In this document: in pieces, positions 5,898 through 35,710 of the stretch
Position numbering within the stretch: the stretch's first letter is position 1
How the letters are laid out: each line of letters opens with the position of its first letter
IMG/VR virus record: IMGVR_UViG_3300042907_001596
Location: 64,001-128,000 of that record
DNA: 64,000 nucleotides
From: a virus
Strand: one strand, 5' to 3'
Made by a program: the position numbers and the translations under genes
Notes under the pieces: model-generated
Seen by the model: the letters and a program-made list of their open reading frames with translations, nothing else
Databases searched by the model: none
What the model was told of the DNA's origin: nothing

Positions 5898-8800
5898 GTG
5901 GTGATCAGACGGATCCAACGGCAGGCTGAGGCGTTCGCCTACCGGCTGGCTTTCCTGCCGTCGCACACCGACAGTGACGCGCCCTTCTGGCTCCAAACCA
6001 CGGAGATTCCTTCCCTCAACGAGTTCGACCACCCGGCGGTCAAGGAGTTCCAAGAGTTTTTAGATGCCGGTCTGGTGCCCCCCGACCCGAAGGAAGCCGT
6101 CGCGGAGTATCTGAACCATCTGCGCCCCGACAACCGAATCCACTACAACCTGCTGCGCAGATACGTCGGGGAGCCGGAACTGGACTCCTACCCGTACACG
6201 ATGACGCGGCCCCCCGCCCCCACTCTGCCCCACGAGCCGTACGCGGAAGTCACCTACCCTCAAGGGTACGAACTCGACTACGACGACCCCGAGCCTGGCG
6301 CTCACTACGCTGGGAGCCGCCACCCTTTTGACCGTGCGCTCGCCGCCGCCCGCTTCACCTTGGCGATGGCCGATACGACGATGTGGCACCCACGCATTGA
6401 GCAGGATCATCGGGACGGCCACGCCGGATGGCACGAAGGCACCTACCGCATCAAAGGGGACGACGGCAAAACCATCGGGGCTATGCAGTACAGCATGGTG
6501 CCCGAAATCGAACACCGGCCCGTCGACCGCCGCCCGCCGAAGAGCATCATCATCGACAAGGTGTTCGTCCACCCGCAGCATCGCGGGAAAGGCATCGCCC
6601 AGTCGTTCGTAGAGCGGTTACACAACGACTTCCCCGACTACAAGATCGACCCCGGCGCGACCACCACCCACGGCAACGGCTTCGCGGAGCATCTGCGCAA
6701 GATCCTCCCCGACGCGGAGCATGCACTGATTCCCGACTACACCCCGAACGTCATGGACGACCGGGCTTCGGACTTCTACGACCGCACCCAGCGCGGCTAT
6801 TACCGGGCTTATTCCGGCGACGAAGACAACGAAGAAATGGAGGAGCTAGAGGCCAACACCGCCCCCGAAGACGACATCGAAGACGACTACGACGCTCCGG
6901 CGCGGGAGATCACTCCCCCCGAAACCGAAGATCAGCTTCTTCAGCGCCTGCGCAACCAGTGGCCCGACGGGGTGATCCAGCATGCCGCCAGCGTTTTGCG
7001 CTACGCCGCCGCCCTCGTGGTGGATCCGCCCACCTTGGAGTGCAACCACCGCACGCCCTGCGCCCCCGGCACCTGCCCGCAGCGCGACATCGCCGCCGAC
7101 CCCGACTTCTACGCCGAGTTCCCCGACCCGGCCGACAAAGAGCGCGAGTTCCAAGACCTCTACCGGCTCCAGTACGAAGACGACGCCGCCGACGCCCGCG
7201 CCACCAACCGGCCCTCAGCGGTGGAGAAAGCGGAGATCCTGCCGCCCGCCCAGCCCGCCCGCGACATCCTCACCGAGTTCGTCAAAGAGCGCGGCCGACG
7301 TAATCGCCGCCCGATCGTCATCACCTGCCCCGACTGCAAGGGGCACCGCTACGAGACGATCCAGCCGGGACAATTGCGGGCTGACGATTGCCGAACCTGC
7401 AAAGGTGAGGGCAGTTTCGTCAAGCCTAGCGTGGAAGAAAAGCTGCGCCCTTGGGCGGAGCGCCTGGAGAACGCCCTTTACAACGAGTTCATGGAGTGGT
7501 GGCCGCAATCGGAAGCCTCGCGGATCCGCAAGCCCGAAGGGTCTGGCACCAAGTGGGAAGACCGCCCCAAAGAGCCGGTCACGCACTGGCTGAACGTGGA
7601 GGACTTCCTCAAGGAGCGGTATCCCGACGCCGCTACGGGGGCGAACTACGGCGGCGAAGAAGCACAGAACCTGCTGGAGCGGGCCATCCAAGAAAGGCCC
7701 GACCCGAAGTGGCTGGAGGAGCGCGGCTACGTCGGTTACGGAAACCCCGTCACCCAAGCCATGCTGACGTTGCACAACCGGTTCAATCTACGTCCTTGGC
7801 GCAACAAAGAGGATCGCCGCCGGTATTACGAACTGATGCTGCGCCACGTCGGGCCGGGAGCCGCCCAGCGGCAAAAGGTGGCAGCGTCAAGTGAGCATTA
7901 CGAACCGATGGACGACGACTTTCTGGACGGTCTGCGAAAGCAATTTGACGAGTGGGCGGCAACCAGCCCCGACGTTGTCAATCCCGATCCCGACGGTCAG
8001 CCTCGCGGCCCGGTCGGTCATTGGCCGAATATCGAAAAGTTCTTCCAAGAGAAATACCCGGCAGCCTATAAAGGCTTGAGCCGTGGCTTGGAGAGTGCCG
8101 TCCCCGCTTTGGACAGTGACGCCGGAGATTACTGCCCACACTGCACCGGCGAGGGGTACTTGCTAAACGAGAACCCGCACCCCGCTGACCTTCCGAGAAA
8201 ATGCCTCAGTTGTAGCGGCACCGGGAAGATCAACGACGATCTGGTGTACGAAACCGGCCCCGACGCCGAAGCCAAGTATGGCTACGACCCGAAGGCTGTC
8301 GCCGCCGGTCTGCTGTATCTGCATAGCGAGTCCCATCCGTATCGGTTCCACATGCGGCAAGAAGACCACAACCGGCTCACCGACATCTTCCAGAAACGCA
8401 TGAAGATGCAACGCCAGTACGAGCAGCGCACCGCCGCCCCGAACCGCACCGAGCCGCTGTCTTCCTCGCCGGACACCGACAGCATCATTTACGGCCTCAG
8501 CAGCGAGTTCGATGAGTGGGCGAAAGCGAACAACAAAGGCAACCCGTACGACCACCGCGTCCTCACCACGCCGAGGGATCTGGTACCCAAGAACTGGAAG
8601 CCTCGCGGCCCGGTGGGCTACTGGCCCAACATCGAAGAGTTTATGAAGGAAAGGTATCCGGCCGCGCACCGTGGGTTGTCAATGGGCTTTGAGGACGCCG
8701 ACCCGCTGCTGGATAGCGGTGGGAAGCACGAGGACGGCACCGACCTGGAGTGGCTCGTCGGCAAGGATCCGTACGAGACGGGGCCGGAGGCTGTCGCTAA

Positions 8801-9962
8801 ACACGGCTACGACCCGCGTGAGATCGCGGCCACCCTGCTGCTGTTGCACAACGACACCCACCCCGGCCGGGAGAATTACCTCAAGAGCGACCAGGCCCGT
8901 CTGCTCGACATCGCCCAGAAGCGACACCAGATGCAGCAGGCGTATGAGGAGAAGCAGAAGGTCGCTGCCTTTCCCTACACCCCTGTGAGGGGCCGTCAAA
9001 ACTTCAGTCACCCGCTGGTCGACACGATCGGCAAAGAGTTCGATGACTGGGCCACCGCTAACGGTGCGGAAAACCCCAACGATCACCCTGACTCCCTAGG
9101 ATATTGGGGCAAGCCTCGCGGGGCCATCGGCTATTGGCCCAACGTCGAAGAGTTCCTAGAAGAGAACTACCCCGAAGCCCACCGGGGCTTGGAGATGGGC
9201 CTGGAGGGGGCCGGATCCCTGCGGGACTACGGTGCGCCGTCCGGCATGGTGCTGGCCCCCGATGACTATGAGCCGCCCGAAGATCTCATGGACTACGCGC
9301 CCTACCCTCCCGAATACGCCGAATACGAGACGGGCGCGTGGGCCGAAGCCCAACACGGCTACGACCCCAAAGAGGTCGTGACGGCACTGCTGCTGCTGCA
9401 CAATCAGACCCACCCGCACCGGTGGGAGCAAGTCAACGCCGACCAAGACGTGCTGATGGACATCGCGCAGAAACGCCACAAAATGCAGAAGGCGTACGAC
9501 GAGCGCATGAAGACCGCCGCCCAACGCACTTGGCACCAACACCTCGCCTCCATCAACCGGCTGGGTGCCGAACTGTCCGACGCCGACGCCGCCATGCTCT
9601 ACGACCACATGCAGAAGCTGTTCCAGCCCATCAAGCCCTCCGGCAAGTGGTACCACGTCTCCCCGCACGCGCTGGCCGACGGCACCGACCTGATCCCCGG
9701 CGGCGGAGACTCCCCCTCCCAATCCTTCTACGACGACGGCTGGGGTGAGGACACCGGCACCCTCACCGACATGGGCCAGGGACGCACCGGCCATGTGTGG
9801 TTGACGCCGGATTTGGACGACGCCCACTTCTGGTCGGCAGCCCTGAGCGCCCCGCACATCTACGAAGTGGATCCGCACGAGGATCCCCGGCCGTGGAACG
9901 GCACCGGTGCCGACGGCTGGGTCGTCCCCGGCGCGAAGATCCGCCGCAAGGTCATCGAATGA
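5898..9962 (+). CDS. Polyprotein A: leader, GNAT, Zn-finger, 4 novel repeat domains, Arr-like ADP-ribosyltransferase (start likely GTG 5901)
   Basis: GNAT VFVHPQHRGKGIAQ; CPDCKG..CRTCKG; repeats YETG..A...HGYDP; ART WYHVSPHALADGTDLIP..HVWLT..IYEVDP. Modules joined at RLA/TLA/KVA/RTA/KTA. Confidence 0.9.
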   Translation: MVIRRIQRQAEAFAYRLAFLPSHTDSDAPFWLQTTEIPSLNEFDHPAVKEFQEFLDAGLVPPDPKEAVAEYLNHLRPDNRIHYNLLRRYVGEPELDSYPYTMTRPPAPTLPHEPYAEVTYPQGYELDYDDPEPGAHYAGSRHPFDRALAAARFTLAMADTTMWHPRIEQDHRDGHAGWHEGTYRIKGDDGKTIGAMQYSMVPEIEHRPVDRRPPKSIIIDKVFVHPQHRGKGIAQSFVERLHNDFPDYKIDPGATTTHGNGFAEHLRKILPDAEHALIPDYTPNVMDDRASDFYDRTQRGYYRAYSGDEDNEEMEELEANTAPEDDIEDDYDAPAREITPPETEDQLLQRLRNQWPDGVIQHAASVLRYAAALVVDPPTLECNHRTPCAPGTCPQRDIAADPDFYAEFPDPADKEREFQDLYRLQYEDDAADARATNRPSAVEKAEILPPAQPARDILTEFVKERGRRNRRPIVITCPDCKGHRYETIQPGQLRADDCRTCKGEGSFVKPSVEEKLRPWAERLENALYNEFMEWWPQSEASRIRKPEGSGTKWEDRPKEPVTHWLNVEDFLKERYPDAATGANYGGEEAQNLLERAIQERPDPKWLEERGYVGYGNPVTQAMLTLHNRFNLRPWRNKEDRRRYYELMLRHVGPGAAQRQKVAASSEHYEPMDDDFLDGLRKQFDEWAATSPDVVNPDPDGQPRGPVGHWPNIEKFFQEKYPAAYKGLSRGLESAVPALDSDAGDYCPHCTGEGYLLNENPHPADLPRKCLSCSGTGKINDDLVYETGPDAEAKYGYDPKAVAAGLLYLHSESHPYRFHMRQEDHNRLTDIFQKRMKMQRQYEQRTAAPNRTEPLSSSPDTDSIIYGLSSEFDEWAKANNKGNPYDHRVLTTPRDLVPKNWKPRGPVGYWPNIEEFMKERYPAAHRGLSMGFEDADPLLDSGGKHEDGTDLEWLVGKDPYETGPEAVAKHGYDPREIAATLLLLHNDTHPGRENYLKSDQARLLDIAQKRHQMQQAYEEKQKVAAFPYTPVRGRQNFSHPLVDTIGKEFDDWATANGAENPNDHPDSLGYWGKPRGAIGYWPNVEEFLEENYPEAHRGLEMGLEGAGSLRDYGAPSGMVLAPDDYEPPEDLMDYAPYPPEYAEYETGAWAEAQHGYDPKEVVTALLLLHNQTHPHRWEQVNADQDVLMDIAQKRHKMQKAYDERMKTAAQRTWHQHLASINRLGAELSDADAAMLYDHMQKLFQPIKPSGKWYHVSPHALADGTDLIPGGGDSPSQSFYDDGWGEDTGTLTDMGQGRTGHVWLTPDLDDAHFWSAALSAPHIYEVDPHEDPRPWNGTGADGWVVPGAKIRRKVIE

Positions 9963-12900
9963 GGCCCATCCTCCGCCAGCGCGACACCTTCGCGTATCGC
10001 ATTGCCGCGCCGGTCAACCAGAACGTCGTCACCCGACTGAATGACGAGTTCCACCAATGGTGGAAGGACAGCGGCTACACCTGGGATCCGTACGAGCGTG
10101 GTACGGCGAGTGAGGACTACGAGCGCGGCCCGATGGGGGACTGGCCGACCATTGAGGAGTTCCTTGAGGAACGCTATCCCGCCGCCCACCGTGGACTGAT
10201 GATGGGGCAAGAGATCGCCCGCCCCCTCCTCGACGGTGTCGGGCGGGACGAGGAAGCCTTGGGACGATGGGACTCTAATCCGCAGACTCAGCGCAACTTC
10301 AACATGCTCCAGGTGACCCACGGCGACAACGTCCCGCCGTACGAGACGGGGCCGGAAGCGCAAGCCCAGCACGGCTACGACCCCCGCGAGGTGGCGGCAG
10401 CTTTCCTGCTGCTGCACAACAAGACGCACCCGCTGCGCGGCTATCGGGCCGGGGAAGACCAAGCCCGCCTGGACGAGATCGCCCAGGCCCGCAACGCCGA
10501 GTTCGACAACGCCGACATCGACGTGCTGCACGACATCGCGCAAAAGCGGACGAAGATGCAACGCGCCGCCATGCCAGCCGAAGACGCCTACGACAACGCC
10601 TACAAGAGCCAGGGGCACGTTCCACGACCTGTTTCGGTTCAGGGGCCGTGGTATCACGGCACCAGGGAGGATCTGCCGGACGGCACCATCCTTGTTCCTA
10701 GCCCAGACAAAAGCCTGTGGAGGTACTTCGATCGGCCAGGAAAAGAAAACCGTGCCGACTGGGTCTGGATGGACACCGACGCCCACATCGCTAAACAGTT
10801 CAGTAAAGGCGGTCACGTCTATGAGGTAGAGCCGCTGGACGAAGGGCCGTGGGAGTGGAACGGCGGCATGTTACCCGCTGGTTACGCTTCGCCTCGCGCA
10901 CGGATCATCCGAAAAGTGCATACCTATGTGCCGCAGTTGCAGGCCGACGAAGATGGTCAGTTCGGGTGGAAGCGCATCGCCATGCCCGCCCCGGCCCCCA
11001 AGGGTCTGCGCTTTGAGTATGACCCCAACTTCATCCACCCTCACGCCGACTACCTAGGCCGAGTCCAGGCTTACGTCGATGACCATCCGGTCGGCCACCT
11101 GGAGTGGCTGAAAGAAGGCAACCCCCTCAGCATGGTCACCGACCGCAAGCCCGGTGAGGTCAGCTTCATCTACGTCCACCCTAATTACCGCCGCCAGTCC
11201 ATCGCCAGCGAGATGTTCGACTGGGCTAAGGAGAACGCCGCGCCGGATTTGCACCACTCGCAGCGCCGTACGGACTTGGGTGACAAATGGGTCGGCTACG
11301 AGCAGCAGCGTGTCGCCGCCGTAGCCGACGACACCATCGACCGCCTGCGCGGAGAGTTCCACGACTGGTGGAACACCGACGGAACTTCCCCGAAAAAGGG
11401 TCAACCCCTTTGGACTCCCGTCTCCTCCAGAGAAGCCATGGGCTACTGGGGAAATATGGAGCGGTTCCTGTCGGCCCGGTATCCGGCGGCGTCCCGCGAC
11501 AGCCTGTATATGGGCATGGAGCAGGTGGAGCCGCTGCTGCATCAGCGCGACGGCCAGTGGGGTGGTGTGCCCCGCAATGCTGACCCTTACGAGACGGGCC
11601 GGAAGGCTGTCGAAAAGCACGGCTACGACCCGGCGGAGATCGCCGCCGGGATGCTGTATCTCCACAATGATGGTCGTCCCGGCCGGGAGCAATTCCAGCA
11701 CGTCAACCGCAACCTCATCTTAAAGATCATCCGCAACCGGCGCAAAATGCAGAAGGAATACGACAGCAAGCCCCGCCAGCTTGAGCTTCCATTGGACGAC
11801 ACCCTCGACAAGGCTGCCGCCGTCTTAGACTTCGCCTCCCGGCTGGCTATGCCCGCCGAAGACGCCTACGACGGCAACTGGAAGAACCGCAAGACCAGCC
11901 CGCCGGTCGTCGGGCCGTTCTACCACTCATCCGATCACGACCTACCGGACGGCACCATCCTCCTCCCCAACCAGGGGGAGTCGAAGTTCACCGACGACTA
12001 CGAGCGGCGTCCCGGCTGGAAAGAGCGCACCAAGTGGGTGTGGATGGAGCTTGACCCCTCCGGCGGGTGGGGTGAGCACACCTACGAGGTAGAGCCGATG
12101 GATGAAGGGCCGTGGCCGTGGAATGGTGACGGTCGGGCTAACGGCTACACCTCTCCTCGCGCCCGCATCATCCGCAAGATGACGCCCGAAGATCAGCAAG
12201 AACTGATGGACGCTTTTGTCGACCGGATGCACGAAGAGAATCGTCAACGAAGTCAAAACAGACCACGGCAAGTTCGCCTCTACACCCGCACCGCCATGCC
12301 CGCCCCTCTACCGGAGGGCATCACCTTCCACTATCACCCCGACGACAGCACCATTCCGGCGGAACACTACGACGACTTTTATGCACCTGCGATTGAGGCC
12401 CGCCACCACGGCAACTACGTCGGGCACCTGAGTTGGACTGACGGCAGCCCCGAAGACGGTGGCAGGCCGGTGGGCGAAATCAACGGCATTATGGTCAAGC
12501 CCGAATATCGACGCCACAGTGTGGCGACGGCGATGTTCGATTACGTCCGGCAACAGCACGAGCCTGCGATCCACCATTCGGGATTCCTAAGCGCAGATGG
12601 CCGATCGTGGCGTGACTATGAAGAATCTCGCCATAAGACGGCGATGCCCGCCCCTCTGCCGGACGATGTCACCTTCAAGTACCACCACACCAACGACTCC
12701 ATCCCCGAGGGATACAACGGCGTCAACCAAGGCGGATCCCACACCTTCCTCGCCCCCGCCGTCGCCGCGTATAAAAACGACAAGCCGGTCGCGTACGTCG
12801 AATGGTGGCCGACCGACAAGTACCCCAACGCCGCCAAGCACTACCGCTTCATGGACAAAGGCAAGCCGGGGGAGGTGTACTACATCTACGTCCACCCCAA

Positions 12901-13891
12901 CCATCGCCGCAACTCCATCGCCAGCGAGATGTTCCGGTGGGCGAAAGACAACGTCGAACCGGATCTGCACCACTCCCCGAAGAAGAGCGAGCTAGGCACG
13001 AAGTGGGTGAGCTACGAGGAGTCCACGCCGGAGCTTGCCCGCGCCGCCGCCGTGATCCGCTACGCCCAGCAGGTGGTGGCGATGCCGCTCAATCACATCC
13101 CGCCGATGAACCACTTCGATGACCGGCTGTTCAAGAAGCAACTGGACAACCTGCACTACTACGGCGACGAGATCACCGGGAAGCCGGATCGTGCCAATCT
13201 CATTCGCAGCCAGGGCGGCAGCACCATCAACACCGCCGGGGAGCATGCAGTCTTCGTGTCGTTTATCCACCACGACGAGAACGGTGCCCCCACCGGGATC
13301 CTGCACTACTTCCCGACCGGCAGCCGGTCGGCTAAGGAAAAGCCCGGTGGGATTCAGGTGCTGGTGCATCCCGCCCACCAAGGCAAGGGTATCGGCTCCA
13401 AGCTCCTCGACGCCGCAATGGCGGAGTACGGCCCCGAAGCGGAAGGATTCGGTGACTACGTCCCCATCGACCTGGACAACCAGAATGTCACCCCCGGCGG
13501 CAACGCACTGATCCAGCGGTACCTCAAGCGCACCGCGATGCCCGCTGTCGACGCCTACGACAGCAACATCCCCCGCAAGAAGCGCATCAGCGATCCATAC
13601 ATCCCTAACGGGCCGTGGTATCACGGCACCGACCATGACCTTCCAGAGGGAACCGTTCTGACTCCCGGCGGTGGACACTCCAGGTACACCGACACCCTCT
13701 ACAAGCGGTGGCCGCACAAGAATCGGGCGAAATGGGTGTGGTTAGCCCCCAGTCCCGACCTCGCCAAGCGGTGGGGGGAGCACATCTACGAGGTGGAGCC
13801 GGAAGTCGAAGGCCCGTTCCCTTGGAATGGGGACGGCGATATGTTCACCGAGTTCGCCACCCCTCGTGCTCGCATTGTGCGCAAGCTCTGA
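9959..13891 (+). CDS. Polyprotein B (1310 aa): leader, repeat, ART, GNAT, repeat, ART, GNAT, GNAT, GNAT, ART
   Basis: ATGA overlap with polyprotein A. Module-start Met after x-x-A at 10571, 10982, 11849, 12296, 12644, 13082, 13538. Motifs GPWYHGT, GPFYHSS, YVHPNYRRQSIAS. Confidence 0.9.
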   Translation: MRPILRQRDTFAYRIAAPVNQNVVTRLNDEFHQWWKDSGYTWDPYERGTASEDYERGPMGDWPTIEEFLEERYPAAHRGLMMGQEIARPLLDGVGRDEEALGRWDSNPQTQRNFNMLQVTHGDNVPPYETGPEAQAQHGYDPREVAAAFLLLHNKTHPLRGYRAGEDQARLDEIAQARNAEFDNADIDVLHDIAQKRTKMQRAAMPAEDAYDNAYKSQGHVPRPVSVQGPWYHGTREDLPDGTILVPSPDKSLWRYFDRPGKENRADWVWMDTDAHIAKQFSKGGHVYEVEPLDEGPWEWNGGMLPAGYASPRARIIRKVHTYVPQLQADEDGQFGWKRIAMPAPAPKGLRFEYDPNFIHPHADYLGRVQAYVDDHPVGHLEWLKEGNPLSMVTDRKPGEVSFIYVHPNYRRQSIASEMFDWAKENAAPDLHHSQRRTDLGDKWVGYEQQRVAAVADDTIDRLRGEFHDWWNTDGTSPKKGQPLWTPVSSREAMGYWGNMERFLSARYPAASRDSLYMGMEQVEPLLHQRDGQWGGVPRNADPYETGRKAVEKHGYDPAEIAAGMLYLHNDGRPGREQFQHVNRNLILKIIRNRRKMQKEYDSKPRQLELPLDDTLDKAAAVLDFASRLAMPAEDAYDGNWKNRKTSPPVVGPFYHSSDHDLPDGTILLPNQGESKFTDDYERRPGWKERTKWVWMELDPSGGWGEHTYEVEPMDEGPWPWNGDGRANGYTSPRARIIRKMTPEDQQELMDAFVDRMHEENRQRSQNRPRQVRLYTRTAMPAPLPEGITFHYHPDDSTIPAEHYDDFYAPAIEARHHGNYVGHLSWTDGSPEDGGRPVGEINGIMVKPEYRRHSVATAMFDYVRQQHEPAIHHSGFLSADGRSWRDYEESRHKTAMPAPLPDDVTFKYHHTNDSIPEGYNGVNQGGSHTFLAPAVAAYKNDKPVAYVEWWPTDKYPNAAKHYRFMDKGKPGEVYYIYVHPNHRRNSIASEMFRWAKDNVEPDLHHSPKKSELGTKWVSYEESTPELARAAAVIRYAQQVVAMPLNHIPPMNHFDDRLFKKQLDNLHYYGDEITGKPDRANLIRSQGGSTINTAGEHAVFVSFIHHDENGAPTGILHYFPTGSRSAKEKPGGIQVLVHPAHQGKGIGSKLLDAAMAEYGPEAEGFGDYVPIDLDNQNVTPGGNALIQRYLKRTAMPAVDAYDSNIPRKKRISDPYIPNGPWYHGTDHDLPEGTVLTPGGGHSRYTDTLYKRWPHKNRAKWVWLAPSPDLAKRWGEHIYEVEPEVEGPFPWNGDGDMFTEFATPRARIVRKL

Positions 13892-13892
13892 C

Positions 13893-13918
13893 GGAATAGT
13901 CACTCCCTCCTCCGCGTT
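13893..13918 (+). promoter_or_regulatory. GGAAT-N18-GTT promoter (copy 5)
   Basis: Exact spacing. Confidence 0.8.
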
Positions 13919-13941
13919 GTACTAGATGGAGGAGGTGCCCC

Positions 13942-14385
13942 ATGACCCGGCGCAAAGCTGTCATCGTAGACGTAGACGGCACCCTCGCGGACGTGCGCGG
14001 GATCCGCCACCACGTCACCACCAAGCCCAAAGACTTCGACGCTTTCCACGCCGCCTCCGCTGATGTTCCCCCGAACCAGCAGGCGATCGACTTCGTGCAG
14101 CGCCACCACGACGCCGGACACGTCATCGTGGTCGTCACCGCCCGCCGCCAGCAGTGGTTGGGCGTGACGCAAGCGTGGCTCGACCAGCATGTGCCGGTGC
14201 CCTTCGACGGCCCCTTCCACCGGGCCGACGACGACTTCCGGCCCGACGTGCAGGTGAAGCGGGACATCCACCGCTACCTCGCCCGCCACTTCGACATCCG
14301 TGGTGCGATAGACGACAACCCCAACGTCATCGCGTTGTGGGACAGCATCGGCATCCCGGTGGAGGTCGTGCCGGGGTGGGAATAG
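13942..14385 (+). CDS. HAD-family phosphatase (polynucleotide 3'-phosphatase-like)
   Basis: DVDGTL motif I, VTAR motif II, K, IDDNP motif IV. Confidence 0.85.
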   Translation: MTRRKAVIVDVDGTLADVRGIRHHVTTKPKDFDAFHAASADVPPNQQAIDFVQRHHDAGHVIVVVTARRQQWLGVTQAWLDQHVPVPFDGPFHRADDDFRPDVQVKRDIHRYLARHFDIRGAIDDNPNVIALWDSIGIPVEVVPGWE

Positions 14386-14404: not shown

Positions 14405-14430
14405 GTAATAAGTGGAGGGAAAGGAGCGAA

Positions 14431-14583
14431 ATGGCCAAGATGCTGGCTCACGCCCAACACATCCGCCAGGGCTACGAAACCTGCGGGTGCGGGCGACCCC
14501 AATGCCGAAAAAAGCGCATAGACGATCGGCGCACTCAGCGCCGGGTGGAAAAAGCCGCGTGGCGGAAAGAGGTAGCGCAATGA
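14431..14583 (+). CDS. Small basic Cys-containing protein (50 aa)
   Basis: RBS aaggag; MAKMLAHAQ...CGCGRPQC; ATGA overlap; translated by hand. Confidence 0.65.
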   Translation: MAKMLAHAQHIRQGYETCGCGRPQCRKKRIDDRRTQRRVEKAAWRKEVAQ

Positions 14584-14993
14584 GAGACTTCATCCCCTTC
14601 AAGGGCCGCAAGCTCGTCCAGGGCGCACCCCACAAGGTGTACTGGAACCTGCACAAAGACGTGTGGTCGCTGGTGGCCCAGGACGGCCCCGACAAAGGCC
14701 GCGTGGTCGGCCACGTCCCCCAACTGGGGCTGCACGACGTGAAGTTCGTCGTGTCCCAAGCCGGACGGGCGCGGGTGATCCGCGAGGAGAAGAAGAACGT
14801 CCACGCCTTCGCCGTCGGCATCCCGGTCAGCCCCTGGCAGATCCATTCGCTGGCTGCTGGCCCGCTGCGGCAACTGAGCTACAACCCCTACAAGGCGGGC
14901 CACTTCGTGGTGCGCGACACCGGCGCGAAGATCGACGCCGCCGGACTGGTGGTGTTCAACGACGCCGGGAAAGCCTTCGCGGACGCGGAATAA
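14580..14993 (+). CDS. Conserved phage hypothetical protein
   Basis: VYWNLH...GRV..H...KNVHAF pattern recalled from many phages. Confidence 0.75.
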   Translation: MRDFIPFKGRKLVQGAPHKVYWNLHKDVWSLVAQDGPDKGRVVGHVPQLGLHDVKFVVSQAGRARVIREEKKNVHAFAVGIPVSPWQIHSLAAGPLRQLSYNPYKAGHFVVRDTGAKIDAAGLVVFNDAGKAFADAE

Positions 14994-24416: not shown

Positions 24417-27400
24417 ATGCCGCCGACAATCTTGAAACGGAACCTGGAGTTCCACTTTCCGCGAGCGGTGTCGGCTGTCGGCCAACTTCCGCAGACGCTG
24501 GAGGTGGTCGTCGTTCCGCTGTCCGACCCTTCGGGGCCGGATCAGGGCACCTACGTTGGTGGACTACAGCGGCAGACGGTGCTGCTGGACGACGACGATA
24601 ACGTCCTCGTCTTCTCCCTCGTCCCTACCGCTTCGCCGCAACTGCTCGCCCCCGTCAGGTATCGGGTGGCCTGGCGCGACGGCGGCGTCGTCGGGCGCAC
24701 CTACACCTACGACTTCGCTATGCCGGATGCTGATACCCGGTTTGACGAACTAGGCGACCTGGGCCAGATCATCGGTGGGGAAGCCTACCTCCAGCAGACC
24801 GACCTGGGTGTCCCCGGCCGGGTGGCCCGCCTCAACTCCTCCGGTATCCCGATCACCTCCACCGGTGTCGCCTTGGCGACTTCGGCGTCGGTCACCTCGC
24901 TGTCTACCAGCCTGACGGCTGAAACCACCGCCCGCACTTCCGGCGACACCAACACCTTGGCGACGGCCAACGCCTACACCAACCAGCAGACCAGCGCACT
25001 GTCCTCGACGCTCACCGCCAGCCAAAGCGCTTTATCGACCTCGCTGAACACAGCGATCACCAACGAAAGTGCCGCCCGCGCCACCGCCGTCGCCGCCGAA
25101 ATCACCGCCCGCACCGCCGCCGACACCGCGCTGGGGTACCGCATTGACGCGCTGGACGCCACCATCACCGGCGACACCTCCACCCTCGACAACAAAGCCG
25201 ACCTGGACGCTTCCGGCCGTGTCCCGATCAGCCAGATCCCCCGCGAAGCCATCACCAGCGCCGTCAGTGTGGCCAACCAAGCGGAGATGCTGGCGCTGAC
25301 CACCGAGCAGGTGCAGCCCGGTGACCTTGCGGTGCGCCCCGACGGTGTGTACGGGCTGTTCTCCACCAACCCGGCGGTGCTCAGCAACTGGGTGCCGCTG
25401 AGCAAAATCAGTTCCGTCAACGGTTACCAAGGCGAGATCAACCTGACCGCCGCCGACGTAGGGGCTATCCCCATCGGATCGTCCATTCCCGTCAGTCAAG
25501 TCATCGGACTCCAGACGGCGCTAGATGCGAAGGCGTCCACGACACAACTGTCGTCGCTGACTACGACCGTCAACGCATTGCAGAACGACTCCACCGTCGT
25601 CCGCACCGTCAGCGGCACCATCCCGCCGACGCTGCTGGGCACGACGGTGGCGTACATTGACGGCAGCAACAACGTCGTCAACAAAGCCGGAACGATCATT
25701 GCGGCCGGAACCGGCAACGTCGCGTCCGTCAACGGCCTCACCGGTGCGATCACGCTGACGGCCACGAACGTCGGGGCCATCGCCACCGGCTCCGCCCTGC
25801 CGATCAGTCAGATCACCGGCCTTCAGACCGCGTTGGACGCCAAAGTCGGCACCTCCGACTCCCGGCTGACCAACAGCCGCACCCCGACGGCCCACGCCGC
25901 CAGCCACGCCTCCGGCGGCTCCGACGCCCTCACGCTGGCCGTTACCCAGATCACCGGCCTCCAGACCGCGTTGGACGCCAAGACCGCCGCCACCGCGACC
26001 ACCGCCCTCACCAACCGGGTGTCGACACTGGAAACGCAGGTGACCAACCTGACCTCCGGCGGCGGCGGATCCCCGGTCAGCAAGGACGTGTGGTGGGATT
26101 CCGCCAGCATCGTGTCCGGCCAGACCACCGCCCCGGCGTTCAAAACCGCCGGGGTGCGACTGAAGTCGCCGTTCGGCAAAGCCGCCAGCGGACAGTTCTA
26201 CATCGACCCGGCCGGGGCGGCGGAGAACGAAACCCTCTGGCCGTACATCACCCCGATGGGCCACCTGGAGCTACGCAAGTGGGATGAGACGGCCGGGGCG
26301 GATGTCGTCTACGCCCCGCAGGCCGCGCTGGACGCCACTAACACCACCGTTAACCTCAAAGCCAGCAAGGTCGACCTGGCGCTGGTCGACACCGCCGTCC
26401 GCGCCAAAGCCAACCAGGCCGACCTGGAGGCGATGCAGGCCGCGCTGGCAGCCAAAGCGACCGTCATTTCCGTCAACGCTCTGTCTACCGCAATCACCGG
26501 CCTGGCGACCCAGGCTTCCGTCAACGCTTTGACGACGACCGTCACGAACAAAGCCAGCACCGCCGAGGTCAACACTTTGACAACCACGGTGGCCACCAAG
26601 GCGTCGCAAGCCGAACTGGACACGGCGAAGGCCGCGATCGTCACCCTCAACACCGCGCTCACCAACAAAGCCGACCTGATCACCGTCGGTGTGGACAAGA
26701 AGATCCCGCTAGCCCAGATCCCCATCGGCATCCCGGTGTCGTCCGTCAACGGTCTTACTGAAGCCCTCGTCGCCAAGGCATCGCTGGTGAGCGGCAAAAT
26801 CTTGGTCGACCAGATCCCCACTTTGCCGATCAGCCAGATCACCGATTTGCAAACCACCCTCGACGGCAAAGCCTCGCTGGTCAACGGCAAGCTGGCGAGC
26901 AGCCAGATCCCGGCCATCGCGACCCACGAGACGTTCGCGGTGGCCTCCAGGGCAGCCATGATGGGCCTCAGTAGCTCGCAGGTGCAGATCGGTGACCAGT
27001 GCATCATCACCAGCGGCACCGACGCGGGAACCTACACCCTTATCGCGAGTGACCCGTCGCAGTTCGGCAACTGGCTGTACAACACGGTGCGCGGCACGGT
27101 GTCGTCGGTCAACACCCAGACCGGTGCCGTCAACCTGACCGCCGACAACGTCAACGCCTGGTCGAAAGACAGCCTCATCCCGATTGCCAGCATCAACGGG
27201 CTGACCGGGCGACTCGACGGCTTGGCGACGACCAGCGCACTGACCACCGGCCTGGCCGACAAGCAGTCAGCCGAAGGGGTGCGCAGCATCATTTCCGGCA
27301 GCCCGCAGATCAAGCAGGCAGCCGATTACGTCGCTACCACCGCCGTCGGAACCCTCAGCGGTGCGCAGACCATCGACGGCGTCTCCACCGTTCCCGGTAA

Positions 27401-27965
27401 GGTTGTCTTGCTGACCGCCCAGGTCGACCCGATCGCTAACGGGGTGTATGTCACCGGCACCAGTGCGTGGACGCGGGCCACCGATATGTCGACCGGATCC
27501 TATCTGGTGCGCGGCACCATCGTGAACGTCACCGGCGGGTCGGTGTTCGCCAACACCGTCTGGCAAGTCACCTCCGCGTCCGGTGTGGTCGGCACGAACG
27601 TCACCAACTGGGTCAAGGTGCTTCAGTCCGGCACCGGCGGGGCGTACACCGCCGGGAATGGTGTAGCACTGACTGCCGGAGCTTTCTCCGCCAAACCCGA
27701 CCGGGGCATCACTGTCGGGCCGTCGGGCATCGCCACCAACCCGGCCGTCGTCGCCCACAAGTTCATCGGGGACATCCCCGGCGGCTCGACGGTCTGTTCG
27801 GTCAACCATGGACTGAACACCCAATGGCCGCTAGTGCAGGTGATCTCCGTAGCCTCCGGTGCCGCCGTTCTCGTCGGGTGGACAGTCACCGGCCCCAACA
27901 CCGTCTCCTTTGAGTTCGCCACCACGCCGCAGTCCGGCCAGTGGAAGGTCGTCGTCCTTGGCTAG
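24417..27965 (+). CDS. Large tail fibre-like / minor tail protein
   Basis: Thr/Ala-rich; repeated SVNG.TG.V.LTA, ISQITGLQTALDAK and LD..G.IP.SQIP fibre-type repeats. Confidence 0.75.
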   Translation: MPPTILKRNLEFHFPRAVSAVGQLPQTLEVVVVPLSDPSGPDQGTYVGGLQRQTVLLDDDDNVLVFSLVPTASPQLLAPVRYRVAWRDGGVVGRTYTYDFAMPDADTRFDELGDLGQIIGGEAYLQQTDLGVPGRVARLNSSGIPITSTGVALATSASVTSLSTSLTAETTARTSGDTNTLATANAYTNQQTSALSSTLTASQSALSTSLNTAITNESAARATAVAAEITARTAADTALGYRIDALDATITGDTSTLDNKADLDASGRVPISQIPREAITSAVSVANQAEMLALTTEQVQPGDLAVRPDGVYGLFSTNPAVLSNWVPLSKISSVNGYQGEINLTAADVGAIPIGSSIPVSQVIGLQTALDAKASTTQLSSLTTTVNALQNDSTVVRTVSGTIPPTLLGTTVAYIDGSNNVVNKAGTIIAAGTGNVASVNGLTGAITLTATNVGAIATGSALPISQITGLQTALDAKVGTSDSRLTNSRTPTAHAASHASGGSDALTLAVTQITGLQTALDAKTAATATTALTNRVSTLETQVTNLTSGGGGSPVSKDVWWDSASIVSGQTTAPAFKTAGVRLKSPFGKAASGQFYIDPAGAAENETLWPYITPMGHLELRKWDETAGADVVYAPQAALDATNTTVNLKASKVDLALVDTAVRAKANQADLEAMQAALAAKATVISVNALSTAITGLATQASVNALTTTVTNKASTAEVNTLTTTVATKASQAELDTAKAAIVTLNTALTNKADLITVGVDKKIPLAQIPIGIPVSSVNGLTEALVAKASLVSGKILVDQIPTLPISQITDLQTTLDGKASLVNGKLASSQIPAIATHETFAVASRAAMMGLSSSQVQIGDQCIITSGTDAGTYTLIASDPSQFGNWLYNTVRGTVSSVNTQTGAVNLTADNVNAWSKDSLIPIASINGLTGRLDGLATTSALTTGLADKQSAEGVRSIISGSPQIKQAADYVATTAVGTLSGAQTIDGVSTVPGKVVLLTAQVDPIANGVYVTGTSAWTRATDMSTGSYLVRGTIVNVTGGSVFANTVWQVTSASGVVGTNVTNWVKVLQSGTGGAYTAGNGVALTAGAFSAKPDRGITVGPSGIATNPAVVAHKFIGDIPGGSTVCSVNHGLNTQWPLVQVISVASGAAVLVGWTVTGPNTVSFEFATTPQSGQWKVVVLG

Positions 27966-29292: not shown

Positions 29293-29295
29293 ACC

Positions 29296-31530
29296 ATGGA
29301 CGCACCGACAAGGAAGATGTACCGGGGGCTGAGGCTGAACAACCTCCCGCCGGAACTGCTGGAACACGTTAAGCGGCACACGCGCATGCCGTACGACGAG
29401 TCTGAGGTCGGCCAGCACTTCAAGATCGGCCCCGTCCTGCTCGACCACATTGAGAACAGCCACCACGACCCCGAACTCAGCCTGGGTCAGAACTGGACGA
29501 TCAACAGGGACTTCGCGGGGAAAGCCGGATGCTCGCAGACCGGCCCCTGCCAGCTAGGCGTGGTACTAGAAGCTGACATCCCGACCGACGAGCACAGCTT
29601 CGACCCCAAGAATAGGGGGCAGAACCCCGGCACAATGCAGTCAGAGCAGCAGGTCACCATCCTGCCGGATGTGCCGCTGAACATCACCGGACTCAAGCTG
29701 GTGGGGTATGGCAACGGTGGCCCCGGCGGACACGATCTAGAAGTCCTCAACGACCCCCGCTATGTCACCCGCCAAAAAGAGTTCCCCAGTGTCGCCCAGT
29801 TCCATTCCGGCCCGCAGATTCGGATCGCCTACCTCCGCAACAAGACCGCTGCACGCGGCGTCCCCGGCTACAACCTGGACGACTGCGAGCCGTCCGGTCG
29901 CTACCTGACCGCCGACACCATCCCCAACCAGCCCGCCCCCGCCGGGTGGGAGCGCGGCACCGTATCTTTCGTCAACCCGCTGCGCTTAGAGCATCTGCAC
30001 GGCGGCTGGCGGCAGGCGCTGTCGGCGCACTACGACGGGCGCACCGGGAAGGAACTCACCGCCAGCCTGGTGGCCGACGGCTACGACGGCATCATCACCG
30101 CCGACCATCACGGCTACGGCGAGATCGTCGCGTTCAGCCCGCCGACCTACAAGAAGCTGGATCTGAAGATCCGCTACCCCGAAACCATCAGGGATCCGCA
30201 GAAGGACACCAGCGACTACAACTTCACCGGCAGCCCCGAAACGCAGTACCACCACCGGGCGCTGGACGACGACGACTTAGAAGACATCGACACCCGCAAA
30301 GACAGCGCAGATGACTGGTATGCCGAGATGGCGACCCGCCGCGCCCAAGGGCTGCCGGAGATCGACTGGAACACCTGGATCAACAAGCGGATCTCGTATC
30401 GTCTCGCCATGGCGTGGGATGAGTGGGCACCGAAGGTTAAAGGCGGCTGTCTGCTGGACGGTTGCTACTGGGACAAAAATGGTGGCAACGACAGTCGCTA
30501 CACCATCCCCCAGGCCGGTGCGTTCCTCCATTACAGTCACGGACAGCGGTGGGGCAAGCCTGCACTGAACGTCATCGGCATCTACACCCACCCCGACAAC
30601 CGCAACGACGGCGTAGCCGAAGCGTTGATGCGGCGGCTCGCCGAAGACCATCCCGGCGTCCACATCGACACCGGCTACATGACACCCGACGGCCAACGCT
30701 TCCACGACCGTGTGCTGGAGAAGGAGCCGTCTGCGCGGGAACTCGTGACAGCCGTGCGGTTGGCCATGGCCTGGGATGAGTGGAAAGACAAGATTCAGCA
30801 CCATGAATATGGCGATGACTTTCTTCAAGGAACAGACAACACTGGAACGTACAAGATTGACCACGGCCCAGACCCCGATGAGCCAGACTTTACGCATGAG
30901 TCATGGCTCAATTACGGATGGGGCCGGGACGACAATGGAGAGCCAGTATTAGATATTCACGATTTAGGTACTGCCGCGCCATTTCGTAATCGTGGAGTAG
31001 CTGAAGCACTGATGCGAAGGCTACATCAAGATAACCCAGGTATCCGAATTAACCCCGGCGGCATGACCGATATGGGCCAAGCCTTCCATGACCGGATGCT
31101 GGAGAAGGAACCCGACGCCCGCGCTTTGGTCACCGCCGCTTCCCTGCTCGTCGGGCCGTATGACGCTTACGACGAAAACGACTGGTTCCAACGCCATATG
31201 GATCATCCGCCCCTGGAGAACCCCGACACCGCCGACTGGTACCACGTCTCGCCGCACCGCATGCAGGTCGGCACCATCCTGGCCCCGATGCGCGGCGAAA
31301 CACCGTGGGATGACGAACCGTACGACAACGGCTTGCAGAACCGGGCCAACTGGGTGTGGATCGAATACGACGAGCGCAAAGCCCGCGAGTGGCAGCAGTG
31401 GGTTCTCAAGCACCAGCCGCAATGCCACCTCTACCGGGTGCAACCCCACCTTGGCCCGTTCGCCTGGAACGGTACCGCCGACGAAGGCTGGGTCACCGAC
31501 TGGGCCGAGATCCTTGAGGAAATGACCTGA
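29296..31530 (+). CDS. Polyprotein C: ART-like (YRG), ART-PolyVal-like, 2 GNAT, Arr-like ART
   Basis: MYRGL...NWT...SEQQV; GYDGII...GEIVAF; RLA|MAWDEW twice before GNATs (RNDGVAEALMRRL, RNRGVAEALMRRL); WYHVSPH...WVWI...LYRVQP...WNG. Confidence 0.85.
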   Translation: MDAPTRKMYRGLRLNNLPPELLEHVKRHTRMPYDESEVGQHFKIGPVLLDHIENSHHDPELSLGQNWTINRDFAGKAGCSQTGPCQLGVVLEADIPTDEHSFDPKNRGQNPGTMQSEQQVTILPDVPLNITGLKLVGYGNGGPGGHDLEVLNDPRYVTRQKEFPSVAQFHSGPQIRIAYLRNKTAARGVPGYNLDDCEPSGRYLTADTIPNQPAPAGWERGTVSFVNPLRLEHLHGGWRQALSAHYDGRTGKELTASLVADGYDGIITADHHGYGEIVAFSPPTYKKLDLKIRYPETIRDPQKDTSDYNFTGSPETQYHHRALDDDDLEDIDTRKDSADDWYAEMATRRAQGLPEIDWNTWINKRISYRLAMAWDEWAPKVKGGCLLDGCYWDKNGGNDSRYTIPQAGAFLHYSHGQRWGKPALNVIGIYTHPDNRNDGVAEALMRRLAEDHPGVHIDTGYMTPDGQRFHDRVLEKEPSARELVTAVRLAMAWDEWKDKIQHHEYGDDFLQGTDNTGTYKIDHGPDPDEPDFTHESWLNYGWGRDDNGEPVLDIHDLGTAAPFRNRGVAEALMRRLHQDNPGIRINPGGMTDMGQAFHDRMLEKEPDARALVTAASLLVGPYDAYDENDWFQRHMDHPPLENPDTADWYHVSPHRMQVGTILAPMRGETPWDDEPYDNGLQNRANWVWIEYDERKAREWQQWVLKHQPQCHLYRVQPHLGPFAWNGTADEGWVTDWAEILEEMT

Positions 31531-31531
31531 C

Positions 31532-33265: not shown

Positions 33266-33278
33266 GAAGGACACACTT

Positions 33279-34013
33279 ATGCCTGCACTCTTTTATGTCG
33301 GGGCCGTCCCTGCGGCGTGGCGGGACATCGCCACCTACGCTTCTGTCGATGCCGCCGTCGCGGCCAGCCGGACGGAAGTCGAAGAGTTGGTGTCGACGGC
33401 AGTGGCCGACAAAGCGGCGGCGGCGGAAGTCCGCGCTAAAGACAACTATTACGCTTTGGACACCGAATACAAAAGCAAAGACGCCACCCGCAACGTGCCG
33501 CTAAACCCCGTCAACGTCGCCGGTGCCCCGGCAACACTAGAAGGTGACGGCACCATCGCCGCCGCCAAGTTCCCGCTGATGGGTGCCGGATACCTGTACG
33601 GGCCGTGGGGTGTCGGCGTCGCCACCAAAGCCACAGGGGTTGGCCTTTCCCCTGTGGCCGTCGCAACCTTCACCACCTCCGCGATTCCCGCCCGATACCT
33701 GTACCGGCCGATGTGCTTCGCCACCATCCTGGTCAAATCGTCCAGCACCGCCGGACGCCCGGTGGTGGAGGTGCGGATGGGCACCACCAACCAGGGTGAA
33801 CTGGTGGCGGTCGGCAGGGGTCGGACGATGTTCACCGGCTTACAGTCCATTGCCGTGATGCCGGTGGCCAGCACCGCCGCCTGGTTGGTCGGCACCGGAA
33901 GCGCGGCCACGTTGACGATGTGGCTGTCCGACGCCGCCGGGGTGCCGGTGTCGATGGACGCCAGCGAAGACGTGACCGGCGCAGCCTACCTGCTCCAAGC
34001 CCCGCCGGTCTGA
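33279..34013 (+). CDS. Minor tail / virion protein
   Basis: Similar organisation to the C-terminal parts of neighbouring genes. Confidence 0.65.
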   Translation: MPALFYVGAVPAAWRDIATYASVDAAVAASRTEVEELVSTAVADKAAAAEVRAKDNYYALDTEYKSKDATRNVPLNPVNVAGAPATLEGDGTIAAAKFPLMGAGYLYGPWGVGVATKATGVGLSPVAVATFTTSAIPARYLYRPMCFATILVKSSSTAGRPVVEVRMGTTNQGELVAVGRGRTMFTGLQSIAVMPVASTAAWLVGTGSAATLTMWLSDAAGVPVSMDASEDVTGAAYLLQAPPV

Positions 34014-34045
34014 CCTGGATTTTGGCCTTCCTCGTCCCCTAAAAG
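34014..34045 (+). promoter_or_regulatory. Putative late promoter CCTGG-N22-AAAAG
   Basis: Variant of the late motif. Confidence 0.5.
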
Positions 34046-34060
34046 ATGAGGAGGATGAGC

Positions 34061-35710
34061 GTGGCGAGACGGATCCAGCGGCAAGCTGAAGTGTATTCCT
34101 GGCGTACCGCCGACCCGGTGTGGCGTCGGGTCGCACGCTTCCCCGTCCCGGCGGAGTGGGCCAGCGACCCCGAGATGCAAGGTACCCTCGCCGCCCCTCG
34201 CGGGCACAGCGGCAGGCGCTGGGACGAACACATCCAGAACCTCGACACCCTCCTCAACGAGTACCACGACAACAAGATCGACAGCCGGTCGATGTTCGGC
34301 CAGCACGACCCGATCACCAAAACCACCCGGTGGAACGCCGACCGGGTGAAGATGCACCAAGACATCGTCAACGAACTCGTCGCGCAGATGGCGAACATCC
34401 CCCGGCAGAAACGGGCCATCCTGATGGCCGGACTGGGCGGGGCGGGCAAAACCTGGGTGCAAAACCAGCCCTTCTTCGGGGTGGATGCGAAGCAGTTCTT
34501 CGTCCTCAGCGCCGACAACATCAAAGAGATGATGGCCGCACGCGGCATGATGCCCACCGCGAAGCACGACCCGCGCTTTGCCGGACACTCCCCGATGGAA
34601 TTGAGTTCCCTCATCCACCTGGAGTCCGACGAGATCGCCAAGCGGGTCGCGGAGATCGCCACTGAGCAGGGCACCAACGTCATCTGGGACTACCGGATGG
34701 CCAACCTGCCTTCGGCACTAGAGCGCATCGGCCGGTTGCGCAGCAACGGCTACAAAGACATCGGGGCGTTCCTGGTCAACGTCGACCCGCAACGGGCACT
34801 GAAGTCCGCGATCAGCCGACACAAAGACGGCCAACAGGCGTGGCTGGACTCCGGCGGGTCGGATCCGGCGAAGCAGGGTGGCCGTTGGCTACCCAGTTTT
34901 GCCCACCATGAAGGCAGCCCCACCCCCGGCTCCGGCATGATGAGCAGCAGCCAGGAAGCGTTCAACCAACTCATCACTCAGCACGCCGACCTGCTGCCGA
35001 TGGGGTACGGCTCCATCGACAACCGGGTGCGCGGCAAGCCGGTGTTCCAAGGCGGCAGCGGACAGTGGGCTAACCTCAACATTCCGCAGGGCCACCCCGA
35101 CACCCTGGCCCCGACACCACCGACGCCGACGCTGGTCAGCGCGAGGAGATGGTTCATGGCCGACGAGCACAACCTCTACGAAACTGACCCATACAGCGTG
35201 CGCGGAATCCTCAACGCCTACAGGGCCGAGCAGATCGACTACCCCACGTTGGTGTCGGAAATCGTCAACCGATTCATGGCGATCACCCCGATTGCCGACG
35301 ACCCGGCCCGCGCCGGATGGTCGCAGTACATGCACAGCGAAATGATGCCGGGGGACGACGACGGCTTCTGGTTGTCGTGTGCTGTCAGCTTGGGCGTTCT
35401 GACTCCCGAGCAGCTAGATGAAATCCTCGACGCCATCCACCAGTCCGTCCACAACGAGCCGCCGCCGGTGCGTCAAGCCAACTCCGTCACTGTCAACTAT
35501 CCGGCCGAGTCGGTGGTGTATCACAGCAACTACATCAAAGCCGTCGGGGATCAACTGGTGGAGTGGTTCGATTCGCGCCGCCAGCCGGGGGAGACGATCG
35601 ACCACTTTATGAAGCAGTACGCCTCCAACCCTGACGAGGTGGCTGTCGCCAAGCCGTATGTAGAGCGTTTTTTGGGGCGCACTGACATCTATCCCCAATC
35701 CGGCGTGTAG
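34061..35710 (+). CDS. Leader-bearing zeta-toxin-like P-loop kinase fused to extra modules (alternative starts 34046/34055)
   Basis: MAGLGGAGKT Walker A, SADNIK, HLES, NVIWD, GGRWLP; leader MARRIQRQAEVYSWRTA. Confidence 0.85.
   Translation: MARRIQRQAEVYSWRTADPVWRRVARFPVPAEWASDPEMQGTLAAPRGHSGRRWDEHIQNLDTLLNEYHDNKIDSRSMFGQHDPITKTTRWNADRVKMHQDIVNELVAQMANIPRQKRAILMAGLGGAGKTWVQNQPFFGVDAKQFFVLSADNIKEMMAARGMMPTAKHDPRFAGHSPMELSSLIHLESDEIAKRVAEIATEQGTNVIWDYRMANLPSALERIGRLRSNGYKDIGAFLVNVDPQRALKSAISRHKDGQQAWLDSGGSDPAKQGGRWLPSFAHHEGSPTPGSGMMSSSQEAFNQLITQHADLLPMGYGSIDNRVRGKPVFQGGSGQWANLNIPQGHPDTLAPTPPTPTLVSARRWFMADEHNLYETDPYSVRGILNAYRAEQIDYPTLVSEIVNRFMAITPIADDPARAGWSQYMHSEMMPGDDDGFWLSCAVSLGVLTPEQLDEILDAIHQSVHNEPPPVRQANSVTVNYPAESVVYHSNYIKAVGDQLVEWFDSRRQPGETIDHFMKQYASNPDEVAVAKPYVERFLGRTDIYPQSGV

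Follow-up and report, generated by a model that had tools for sequence, protein, structure and literature searches.

A shared N-terminal leader ending in Arg-x-Ala on multi-enzyme proteins of an uncultured actinobacteriophage, a candidate capsid-targeting tag

The IMG/VR virus record IMGVR_UViG_3300042907_001596 is 150,440 bp long and is rated complete. We analysed its bases 64001-128000, a stretch of 64,000 nucleotides called the window hereafter. Positions are those of the window unless marked as genome positions. The GC content is 63% and the + strand carries nearly all genes. Terminase identity is 53-55% with Mycobacterium phage Phrappuccino, the Rhodococcus phages Finch and E3, and the Gordonia phages Pupper, Skog and Stormageddon. 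The major capsid protein is ~81% identical to those of Bxz1-type (Cluster C) mycobacteriophages and Myrna. Because of these two sets of identities, the virus is assigned by sequence to the contractile-tailed actinobacteriophages of the Phrappuccino/Bxz1-type/Myrna clade. The subject of this study is a short peptide, the leader, that begins several proteins of this virus, ends in R-x-A and might be a tag for loading these proteins into the head.

Within the window, the leader opens three genes of the + strand. Copy 1 (5901..5951, 17 codons, GTG start, R-L-A end; MIRRIQRQAEAFAYRLA) begins pB, a protein of 1353 residues (5901..9962). Copy 2 (9959..10006, 16 codons, ATG start, R-I-A end; MRPILRQRDTFAYRIA) begins pC, of 1310 residues (9959..13891). 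Copy 3 (34061..34111, 17 codons, GTG start, R-T-A end; MARRIQRQAEVYSWRTA) begins pE, of 549 residues (34061..35710). A fourth copy (genome 62576-62626; MTRRIQRQREAFAYRVA) lies 1,425 nt 5' of the window and begins pA, also on the + strand, a protein of 1069 residues whose C-terminal 594 residues are encoded at 1..1785. These four copies are called type 1.

The region upstream of pB (5853..5897, + strand) contains a CTGACCTG motif at 5852-5859, then CCTGAATAAGT, then a Shine-Dalgarno sequence GGAGGTG (5890-5896) separated by 4 nt from the start at 5901. The region upstream of pE (34011..34060, + strand) shows the same succession, with the CTGACCTG motif, CCCTAAAAGAT and a Shine-Dalgarno sequence GAGGAGGA (34048-34055) separated by 5 nt from the start at 34061. 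A tail-module gene at genome 1961 is preceded by this arrangement too. The ATG at 9959 overlaps the TGA stop of pB, i.e. pC is translationally coupled to the upstream gene. A first-pass annotation of the window had placed three leaders with R-x-A ends at these positions and had considered that the true starts might lie downstream of them. All three leaders are present as placed and, to judge from the Shine-Dalgarno sequences (5901 and 34061) and from the stop-codon overlap (9959), their N-terminal starts are credible.

The extended motif CTGACCTG-N22-CCTnAAnAnGT may be a late promoter. It stands ~45 nt 5' of pB, of pE and of a tail-module gene at genome 1961 (5852-5882, 34010-34040 and genome 1892-1935, respectively). 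A looser copy is found at 50775-50790, 5' of a 1303-aa gene at 50856. The late motif noticed earlier before 5901 and 34061 is indeed there, but it is absent upstream of pA, which carries the fourth copy of the leader, and the copy at 9959 is coupled to the upstream gene.

The modules of the cargo proteins were called with Pfam, PHROGs and internal-repeat comparison. pA contains two copies of a module that we name X and one GNAT domain. pB is composed of a unique N-terminal region, a GNAT domain, a DnaJ-type zinc finger, four X modules and a C-terminal ADP-ribosyltransferase (ART) module with a predicted likeness to rifampin ADP-ribosyltransferase (Arr). pC is a succession of nine modules: X, ART, GNAT, X, ART, GNAT, GNAT, GNAT and ART. 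A further protein, pD (744 aa; 29296..31530, + strand), has an LYRG-type domain, two GNAT domains and an Arr-like ART and carries no N-terminal leader. pE has a zeta-toxin-type P-loop kinase domain at residues 115-257 (Pfam PF06414, E 6.7e-10), also matched by a PHROG 'minor head protein' family. BLAST detects no similarity between pE and pA-pD. Several unrelated effector-type domains (GNAT, DnaJ zinc finger, Arr-like ART, X) are therefore present per polypeptide, up to nine in pC, and no peptidase family was matched in pA-pE with Pfam or PHROGs. pA, pB and pC are mosaics of common modules, and pB and pC have three module types in common downstream of the leader. The cargos had been described as unrelated. 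This holds for the whole of pE and for the regions directly after the leaders, but not for the downstream parts of pB and pC.

Module X, of ~160 residues, is found at 10007-10573 and in seven further copies in pA, pB and pC. Its conserved motifs are E-F-x-x-W, Y-P-A-A-H-R-G, Y-E-T-G-P-E-A and L-L-L-H-N. It has no Pfam or PHROG match and no usable protein atlas match, and it is the most frequent leader cargo in metagenomes. The ART module, or WYH module, of ~110 residues, occurs in five copies (9573-9959, 10526-10981, 11801-12295, 13490-13888 and 31123-31527). Its AlphaFold2 model has a mean pLDDT of 64.6; most of the core is at 76-94, apart from two dips near 52-54. Arr structures (2hw2, 9iaf and 9iba; probability 0.99-1.0, E 1e-3 to 5e-3, 21-23% identity) take the first three places among the Foldseek matches of this model, and the further matches below them are other ADP-ribosyltransferases. 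The model predicts that the WYH module has the Arr fold, and "Arr-like" here refers to predicted fold only.

The leader is a specific feature of N-termini. A profile built from the four copies matches no other place in the 150,440-bp genome, and all its matches are N-terminal. With a second profile, built from 13 leaders of four phages, the four copies score 22-26 bits and the next best place in the genome scores 6 bits. Across both profiles, the four copies score 22-43 bits. By these measures, the resemblance among the copies is beyond chance. At conserved residues, pairwise comparison of the copies shows synonymous codon differences as frequently as identical codons. Between pA and pC, 1 codon is identical and 9 differ synonymously, and between pB and pE there are 5 of each kind. 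Because synonymous differences are as common as identical codons, the codon comparison indicates that selection acts on the peptide and that the leader is translated. An RNA-level element was considered and rejected, since synonymous variation is high. The similarity at the DNA level noted earlier between the 5901 and 34061 copies amounts to ~65% nucleotide identity only, and half of the conserved residues are in different codons. Megablast of these two leader regions against 50,697 phage records gave no match, and with residues 1-40 of pE as query, a word-based homologue search found just pE itself and one 90% relative.

Leaders are also found in other phages, as a profile search proposed in the first-pass annotation now shows: in this genome it finds only the N-terminal copies, in related phages and metagenomes more of them. 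In Phrappuccino, type-1 leaders begin gp67 and gp68, and gp75 has a weaker form. gp68 (126 aa) is composed of the leader, M-P and an Arr-like module, and nothing else. The genes of gp67 and gp68 have neck and tail genes around them, and that of gp75 is placed in the interval between tube and tail chaperones. DNA pattern scans of a viral collection identified an uncultured phage of 143.6 kb, G001, with five clear type-1 leaders. Two of these leaders head LYRG-domain proteins; the others are on a zeta kinase (Pfam E 4e-17), on a protein of 93 residues and on one that has a cytidylyltransferase-like match, though a weak one. Five of the nine matches to two refined patterns were rejected as chance matches, some lying inside a capsid-like protein encoded on low-GC contigs and two containing stop codons. 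In a lineage of GC 55%, the leader is followed by a glycine-rich linker and then by a domain that is also found inside the protease-scaffold protein of the present phage. Another locus, L038, has two leaders 1.8 kb 3' of the capsid gene, one on an SLT transglycosylase and one on a protein with a weak NlpC/P60 match. A 12-sequence profile searched against 1.84 billion protein representatives retrieved 16 proteins at E <= 1e-3, and in 15 of these the match begins at residue 1-5. The nine leader-protein clusters that were looked up are all metagenome-only, on contigs of up to 144,825 bp, and further cargo types appear among the metagenomic leader proteins.

A longer variant of ~21 residues, R-R-I-V-T-A-R-E-Q ... 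W-R-x-A, is called type 2. It is carried by gp101 and gp102 of Cali, gp102 of Myrna, gp57 of Phrappuccino and several proteins of Pupper and Skog, one of which consists of the leader and a module X. In the present phage, the type-2 leader MARRIVTHRDQ ... LRWA begins a 234-aa protein with no family match, encoded directly 3' of the capsid gene (genome 131345-132049). The tally for this genome is four type-1 leaders and one type-2 leader, all N-terminal.

A leader-like start, EIQRQSDYYG, was also observed in a 174-aa tail-module gene located 3' of the tail tube gene (genome 1961-2485). Its counterparts are gp75 of Phrappuccino, which starts with MAPRIARQAETFG and lies just 5' of the tail chaperones, and a gene of G001 starting with IVRQADQYG. 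All three have the first half of the leader, called the docking half below, and R-x-A is located farther downstream or is missing.

One could imagine that the similarity between leaders is a relic of duplication or shuffling among paralogous cargo genes, or that it reflects a nucleotide-level element, for example a translation start region. Consistent with this, pA, pB and pC are mosaics of the same modules, and the codons AGA-CGG-ATC are identical in two copies. However, codons differ synonymously as often as they are identical, genera whose core proteins are 53-81% identical have retained the peptide, also on unrelated cargos, and nearly all the database matches lie at the start of the protein. 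We consider such a relic very improbable.

[F/Y]-[A/S/G]-[Y/W]-R-x-A, or a near variant, closes every type-1 leader. This ending, which we call the cut-site half, is common to the N-terminal leaders and to junctions inside the large proteins. N-termini retain the first half, R-R-I-x-R-Q-x-E/D, whereas most internal junctions have a degenerate form of it. The module boundaries of pC all have [R/K]-x-A (10562-10570, 10973-10981, 11309-11317, 11840-11848, 12287-12295, 12635-12643, 13058-13066 and 13529-13537, + strand) followed by M-P, six times, or by A. The residues that precede these junctions resemble the last six of the leader, as in FGWKRIA, DFASRLA and RLYTRTA. Six more R-x-A triplets of pC sit inside modules; in place of an aliphatic residue or Thr, they have N, E, K, W or S in the middle. 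In pB, [R/K]-x-A followed by A is found at 6999-7007, 7875-7883, 8427-8435, 8958-8966 and 9510-9518 (+ strand). In pD, the internal echo of the leader reported earlier, KRISYRLA, was located at 30385-30408 and is followed by MAWDEW. A second one, VTAVRLA (30745-30765, + strand), also precedes MAWDEW. Metagenomic proteins have internal GFAYRLA junctions ahead of a second module, and one of them has a full internal leader. In Phrappuccino gp57, an internal type-2 copy stands immediately before the zeta domain. The zeta domain lies within gp57 in Phrappuccino and is encoded in the present phage by a separate gene with its own leader, pE.

The junction motif [R/K]-x-A-[M/A] was counted in several sets of proteins. 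The cargo proteins have 21 occurrences for 5.3 expected, a number reached in 0 of 500 shuffles, although these are not independent events because the modules are duplicated. Three giant proteins of the head region have 17 occurrences for 5.5 expected (again 0 of 500 shuffles), and nine other large proteins have 13 for 10.1 expected. The enrichment is 3-4 fold in the cargo proteins and in the head-region giants, and is not seen in the other large proteins. When all a-x-b pairs are counted, R-x-A ranks third and K-x-A fifth in the three giants, and both are at or below expectation in the nine other proteins.

The junctions raise the possibility that the leader is a propeptide or linker removed by a protease and nothing more, the cargo entering the head by other means or acting in the cytoplasm after processing by a phage or host protease. 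Of the whole set of features, the junction motif has the strongest support, and pD has junctions and no N-terminal leader, as this explanation would have it. But the cut-distal half R-R-I-x-R-Q-x-E is kept across genera at N-termini and degenerate at most junctions, and it would be needless for a mere cut site. Removing 16 N-terminal residues would also seem purposeless unless they first had a function. We therefore judge a role limited to cleavage to be unlikely.

The same end motif is found in head proteins. The order of the head gene block is portal (55107-57503), a 1270-residue LysM protein, a 1157-residue protein, a cement protein and the capsid protein. The 1157-residue protein (62022..64000, continuing to genome 129495, + strand) is a putative prohead protease-scaffold fusion that is conserved in eight relatives. 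Its first ~250 residues match phrog_18299 'head maturation protease' (E 4.6e-21), and the protease domain covers residues 67-211 (about 62220-62654). We presume this domain to be the processing enzyme. A PDB sequence search with the protease region gave no match, and the early impression that the protease resembles that of HK97 rather than T4 gp21 found no confirmation in Pfam or PDB searches. The ~900-residue scaffold-like tail has proline/glutamate/methionine-rich repeats. One of its domains, at residues ~391-508, matches a tape-measure family and is in other phages a separate protein with a leader. The homologues of Myrna and Cali are annotated as 'tape measure'. Four [R/K]-x-A sites are kept, among four phages, in stretches of this protein that are otherwise unalignable. 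A complex prediction for the protease domain (8-row alignment) with residues 1-40 of pB gave a score of 0.10 against a mark of 0.32, which speaks neither for nor against an interaction.

In the capsid protein, [R/K]-x-[A/S] is present 9-17 residues from the N-terminus in nearly all lineages examined. The sites are FQRIA in this phage, and FGRYA, LGRFA, LGRFS, LQRTA, FGKLA and FGRVA elsewhere. A 60%-identical capsid lineage whose upstream part is shorter has MQRKA, and the capsid protein of G001 has E-R-F-G-A at the corresponding place. The sole PDB match of the capsid protein is phage G gp27 (6wkk). It is aligned from residue 37 and is uninformative on cleavage. Papers on the Myrna capsid and on phage G contain no N-terminal processing data.

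The location of several leader genes would rather suggest loading into the tail, the neck or the tube lumen, in the manner of the payload signals of contractile injection systems. The tail of the phage is contractile, gp67 and gp68 of Phrappuccino are among neck and tail genes and gp75 is between the tube and the tail chaperones, pE lies 3' of two minor tail genes and the tail-module gene at genome 1961 starts with the leader-like EIQRQSDYYG. On the other hand, the cut-site half is also found at the N-terminus of the capsid protein and in the giants encoded between the portal and capsid genes, and leader genes are directly 3' of the capsid gene in L038 and in the type-2 lineages. Tail loading appears improbable to us.

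A function outside the virion is also conceivable, as a chaperone handle, an inhibitor of toxic enzymes in the producing cell, or a degradation or export signal. Toxin-like cargos, of which there are several (zeta kinase, ART), might have to be restrained, and the leader starts with twin arginines. However, no hydrophobic stretch follows the arginines, which points to neither Tat nor Sec. With a core of at least 12 residues as criterion, no hydrophobic run was found within the 17 leader residues, and the sequence that follows is polar or charged. A Tat or Sec export signal was rejected for lack of this hydrophobic core. Cargos that are not toxic (SLT, module X) also carry the leader, and the presence of the same end motif at the N-terminus of the capsid protein would be left unexplained. 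The chances of such a role seem slim.

We propose that the leader is a two-part tag composed of the docking half and of a prohead protease cut site. Judged from sequence comparison, we give this proposal an even chance. The docking half R-R-I-x-R-Q-x-E/D would dock the new protein to the assembling head, at the scaffold or core, the shell interior or the portal. The cut-site half would then be cut by the prohead protease, which forms the N-terminal part of the 1157-aa protein. Where it stands without the docking half, this cut site would separate the modules of the giant multidomain proteins. With such a site between their modules, these proteins would be cut inside the head into single enzymes, namely Arr-like ADP-ribosyltransferases, GNATs, module X and the zeta-type kinase. 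They would then exit along with the DNA to act on the host at an early stage of infection. The steps of docking, cleavage, packaging and ejection are all ones that we infer. In a wider and more tentative version, about which we have some doubt, an actinobacterial myovirus clade would possess a modular address system, in which a docking peptide loads arbitrary enzymes into the capsid and an Arg-x-Ala prohead protease removes the tag and chops the polyproteins. Under this same tentative reading, the clade would include Bxz1-type mycobacteriophages, Phrappuccino, some Gordonia phages and many uncultured relatives.

The suggestion of a capsid-targeting tag, first made from the three window copies, gains from what was found. 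The peptide is confined to N-termini, is selected at the protein level, is carried by many cargos in several genera, and its end motif recurs at junctions and in head proteins; packaging and cleavage would be the steps proposed on top of these observations. In addition, the cargo types match known packaged phage proteins, i.e. ART, GNAT, kinases and cell-wall hydrolases (compare PMC5512222).

Several points weigh against the two-part tag. No leader was found with either profile in Finch, E3 and Stormageddon, which are close relatives with the same capsid and protease type. Leader genes stand among tail and neck genes rather than head genes for gp67, gp68 and gp75 of Phrappuccino and for pE, and pD carries junctions yet lacks an N-terminal leader. 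R-x-A alone is mildly enriched in the cargo proteins (40 for 30 expected), R and A are common residues in this GC-rich genome, and module duplication inflates the junction counts of the cargos. The helical hydrophobic moment exceeds that of 95% of shuffles in just 3 of 13 leaders, because of which amphipathicity is not a reliable feature of the leader. Finally, we found in the literature no proteomic, N-terminal-sequencing or structural evidence of virion-borne cargo or of a cut R-x-A bond, no virion proteome covering leader proteins and no description of a shared leader or of N-terminal processing in these phages.

As a working analogy, the capsid targeting sequence (CTS) of phage T4 comes closest. 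The T4 CTS has about 10 residues with an L/I-x-E site, and T4 cargo includes an ADP-ribosyltransferase. It is carried by IPI-III and Alt and is removed by the gp21 prohead protease (see reviews such as PMC3012670). As in T4, a short N-terminal peptide is common to otherwise unrelated proteins, its three-residue end motif recurs in head proteins and an ADP-ribosyltransferase is among the cargos (here Arr-like, by predicted fold). In contrast, there is no sequence similarity, the leader is Arg-rich, it has 16-17 residues (type 1) or about 21 (type 2) instead of about 10, and it ends in R-x-A without L/I-x-E. The protease also differs from gp21, with a match to a PHROG 'head maturation protease' family and a fusion to the scaffold. 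Unlike in T4, the same motif is proposed to cut multidomain polyproteins. Because sequence, length, cut motif and protease match all differ, the comparison indicates that the leader is not a member of the T4 CTS family.

Other systems show partial likeness. In phiKZ-like giant phages, propeptides and other parts of head or ejection proteins are reported to be cut at A/S/G-x-E by the prohead protease (SPN3US gp245, phiKZ gp175; PMC10052503, PMC7411985). As is proposed here, many head-internal or ejected proteins of those phages are processed at one short consensus, several large ones at more than one site. The consensus and the protease lineage are different, and those phages are not known to have a single shared N-terminal leader of fixed sequence. 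Their cleavages were shown by mass spectrometry, whereas those considered here are proposed from sequence. Polyvalent proteins, as defined for phages and conjugative elements by Iyer, Burroughs, Anand, de Souza and Aravind in 2017, contain 2-15 effector domains and are predicted to be packaged and injected (PMC5512222). The same study lists, among late genes, a solo GNAT that belongs to the Bxz1-type phage Alice. Processing is proposed there to be the work of embedded peptidases, and neither a common N-terminal leader nor an R-x-A junction is described (PMC5512222). The present cargos are likewise giant multi-effector phage proteins, with ART, GNAT, kinases and peptidoglycan hydrolases, but an embedded peptidase was not found in pA-pE.

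In phage P1, the N-terminal region of the antirestriction protein DarB directs head loading, and the Dar proteins are ejected to protect or assist the incoming DNA. Here also, large enzymes are proposed to be loaded into the head through their N-terminal region. P1, however, needs ordered partner proteins and is not known to use a short shared leader or a consensus cut site. Encapsulin cargo-loading peptides and the N-terminal payload signals of contractile injection systems are short and portable, and are enough to load foreign proteins into an HK97-fold shell or a tail-like tube. Unlike the leader, encapsulin peptides are usually C-terminal and injection signals have about 50 disordered residues. 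Neither is known to be cleaved, and the sequences are unrelated. To our knowledge, T4 is the sole case in which the head loading of polyvalent effectors is understood in detail, with partial knowledge for P1 and the phiKZ group.

The leader offers a defined peptide and a cut motif that are open to testing in cultivable Mycobacterium smegmatis phages (Phrappuccino, Bxz1-type, Myrna). If true, the proposal would give a substrate rule for an uncharacterised prohead protease family, would account for the giant multi-enzyme gene architecture in these phages and would predict which unknown genes encode injected proteins. It would also provide a tag to place reporter or benign proteins in mycobacteriophage particles, and would reveal a strategy like that of RNA-virus polyproteins within a dsDNA phage.

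Other genes of the window may be mentioned. Directly 3' of pC are found a HAD phosphatase of the polynucleotide-kinase type (13942-14385) and then a homologue of mycobacteriophage L5 gp82 (14412-14993). A 1182-aa 'virion structural protein' (24417-27965; phrog_2824, E 5e-302) has head-decoration and minor-tail-like segments. Its gene is overlapped by several antisense open reading frames with a high GC content at third codon positions, which are probably not genes.

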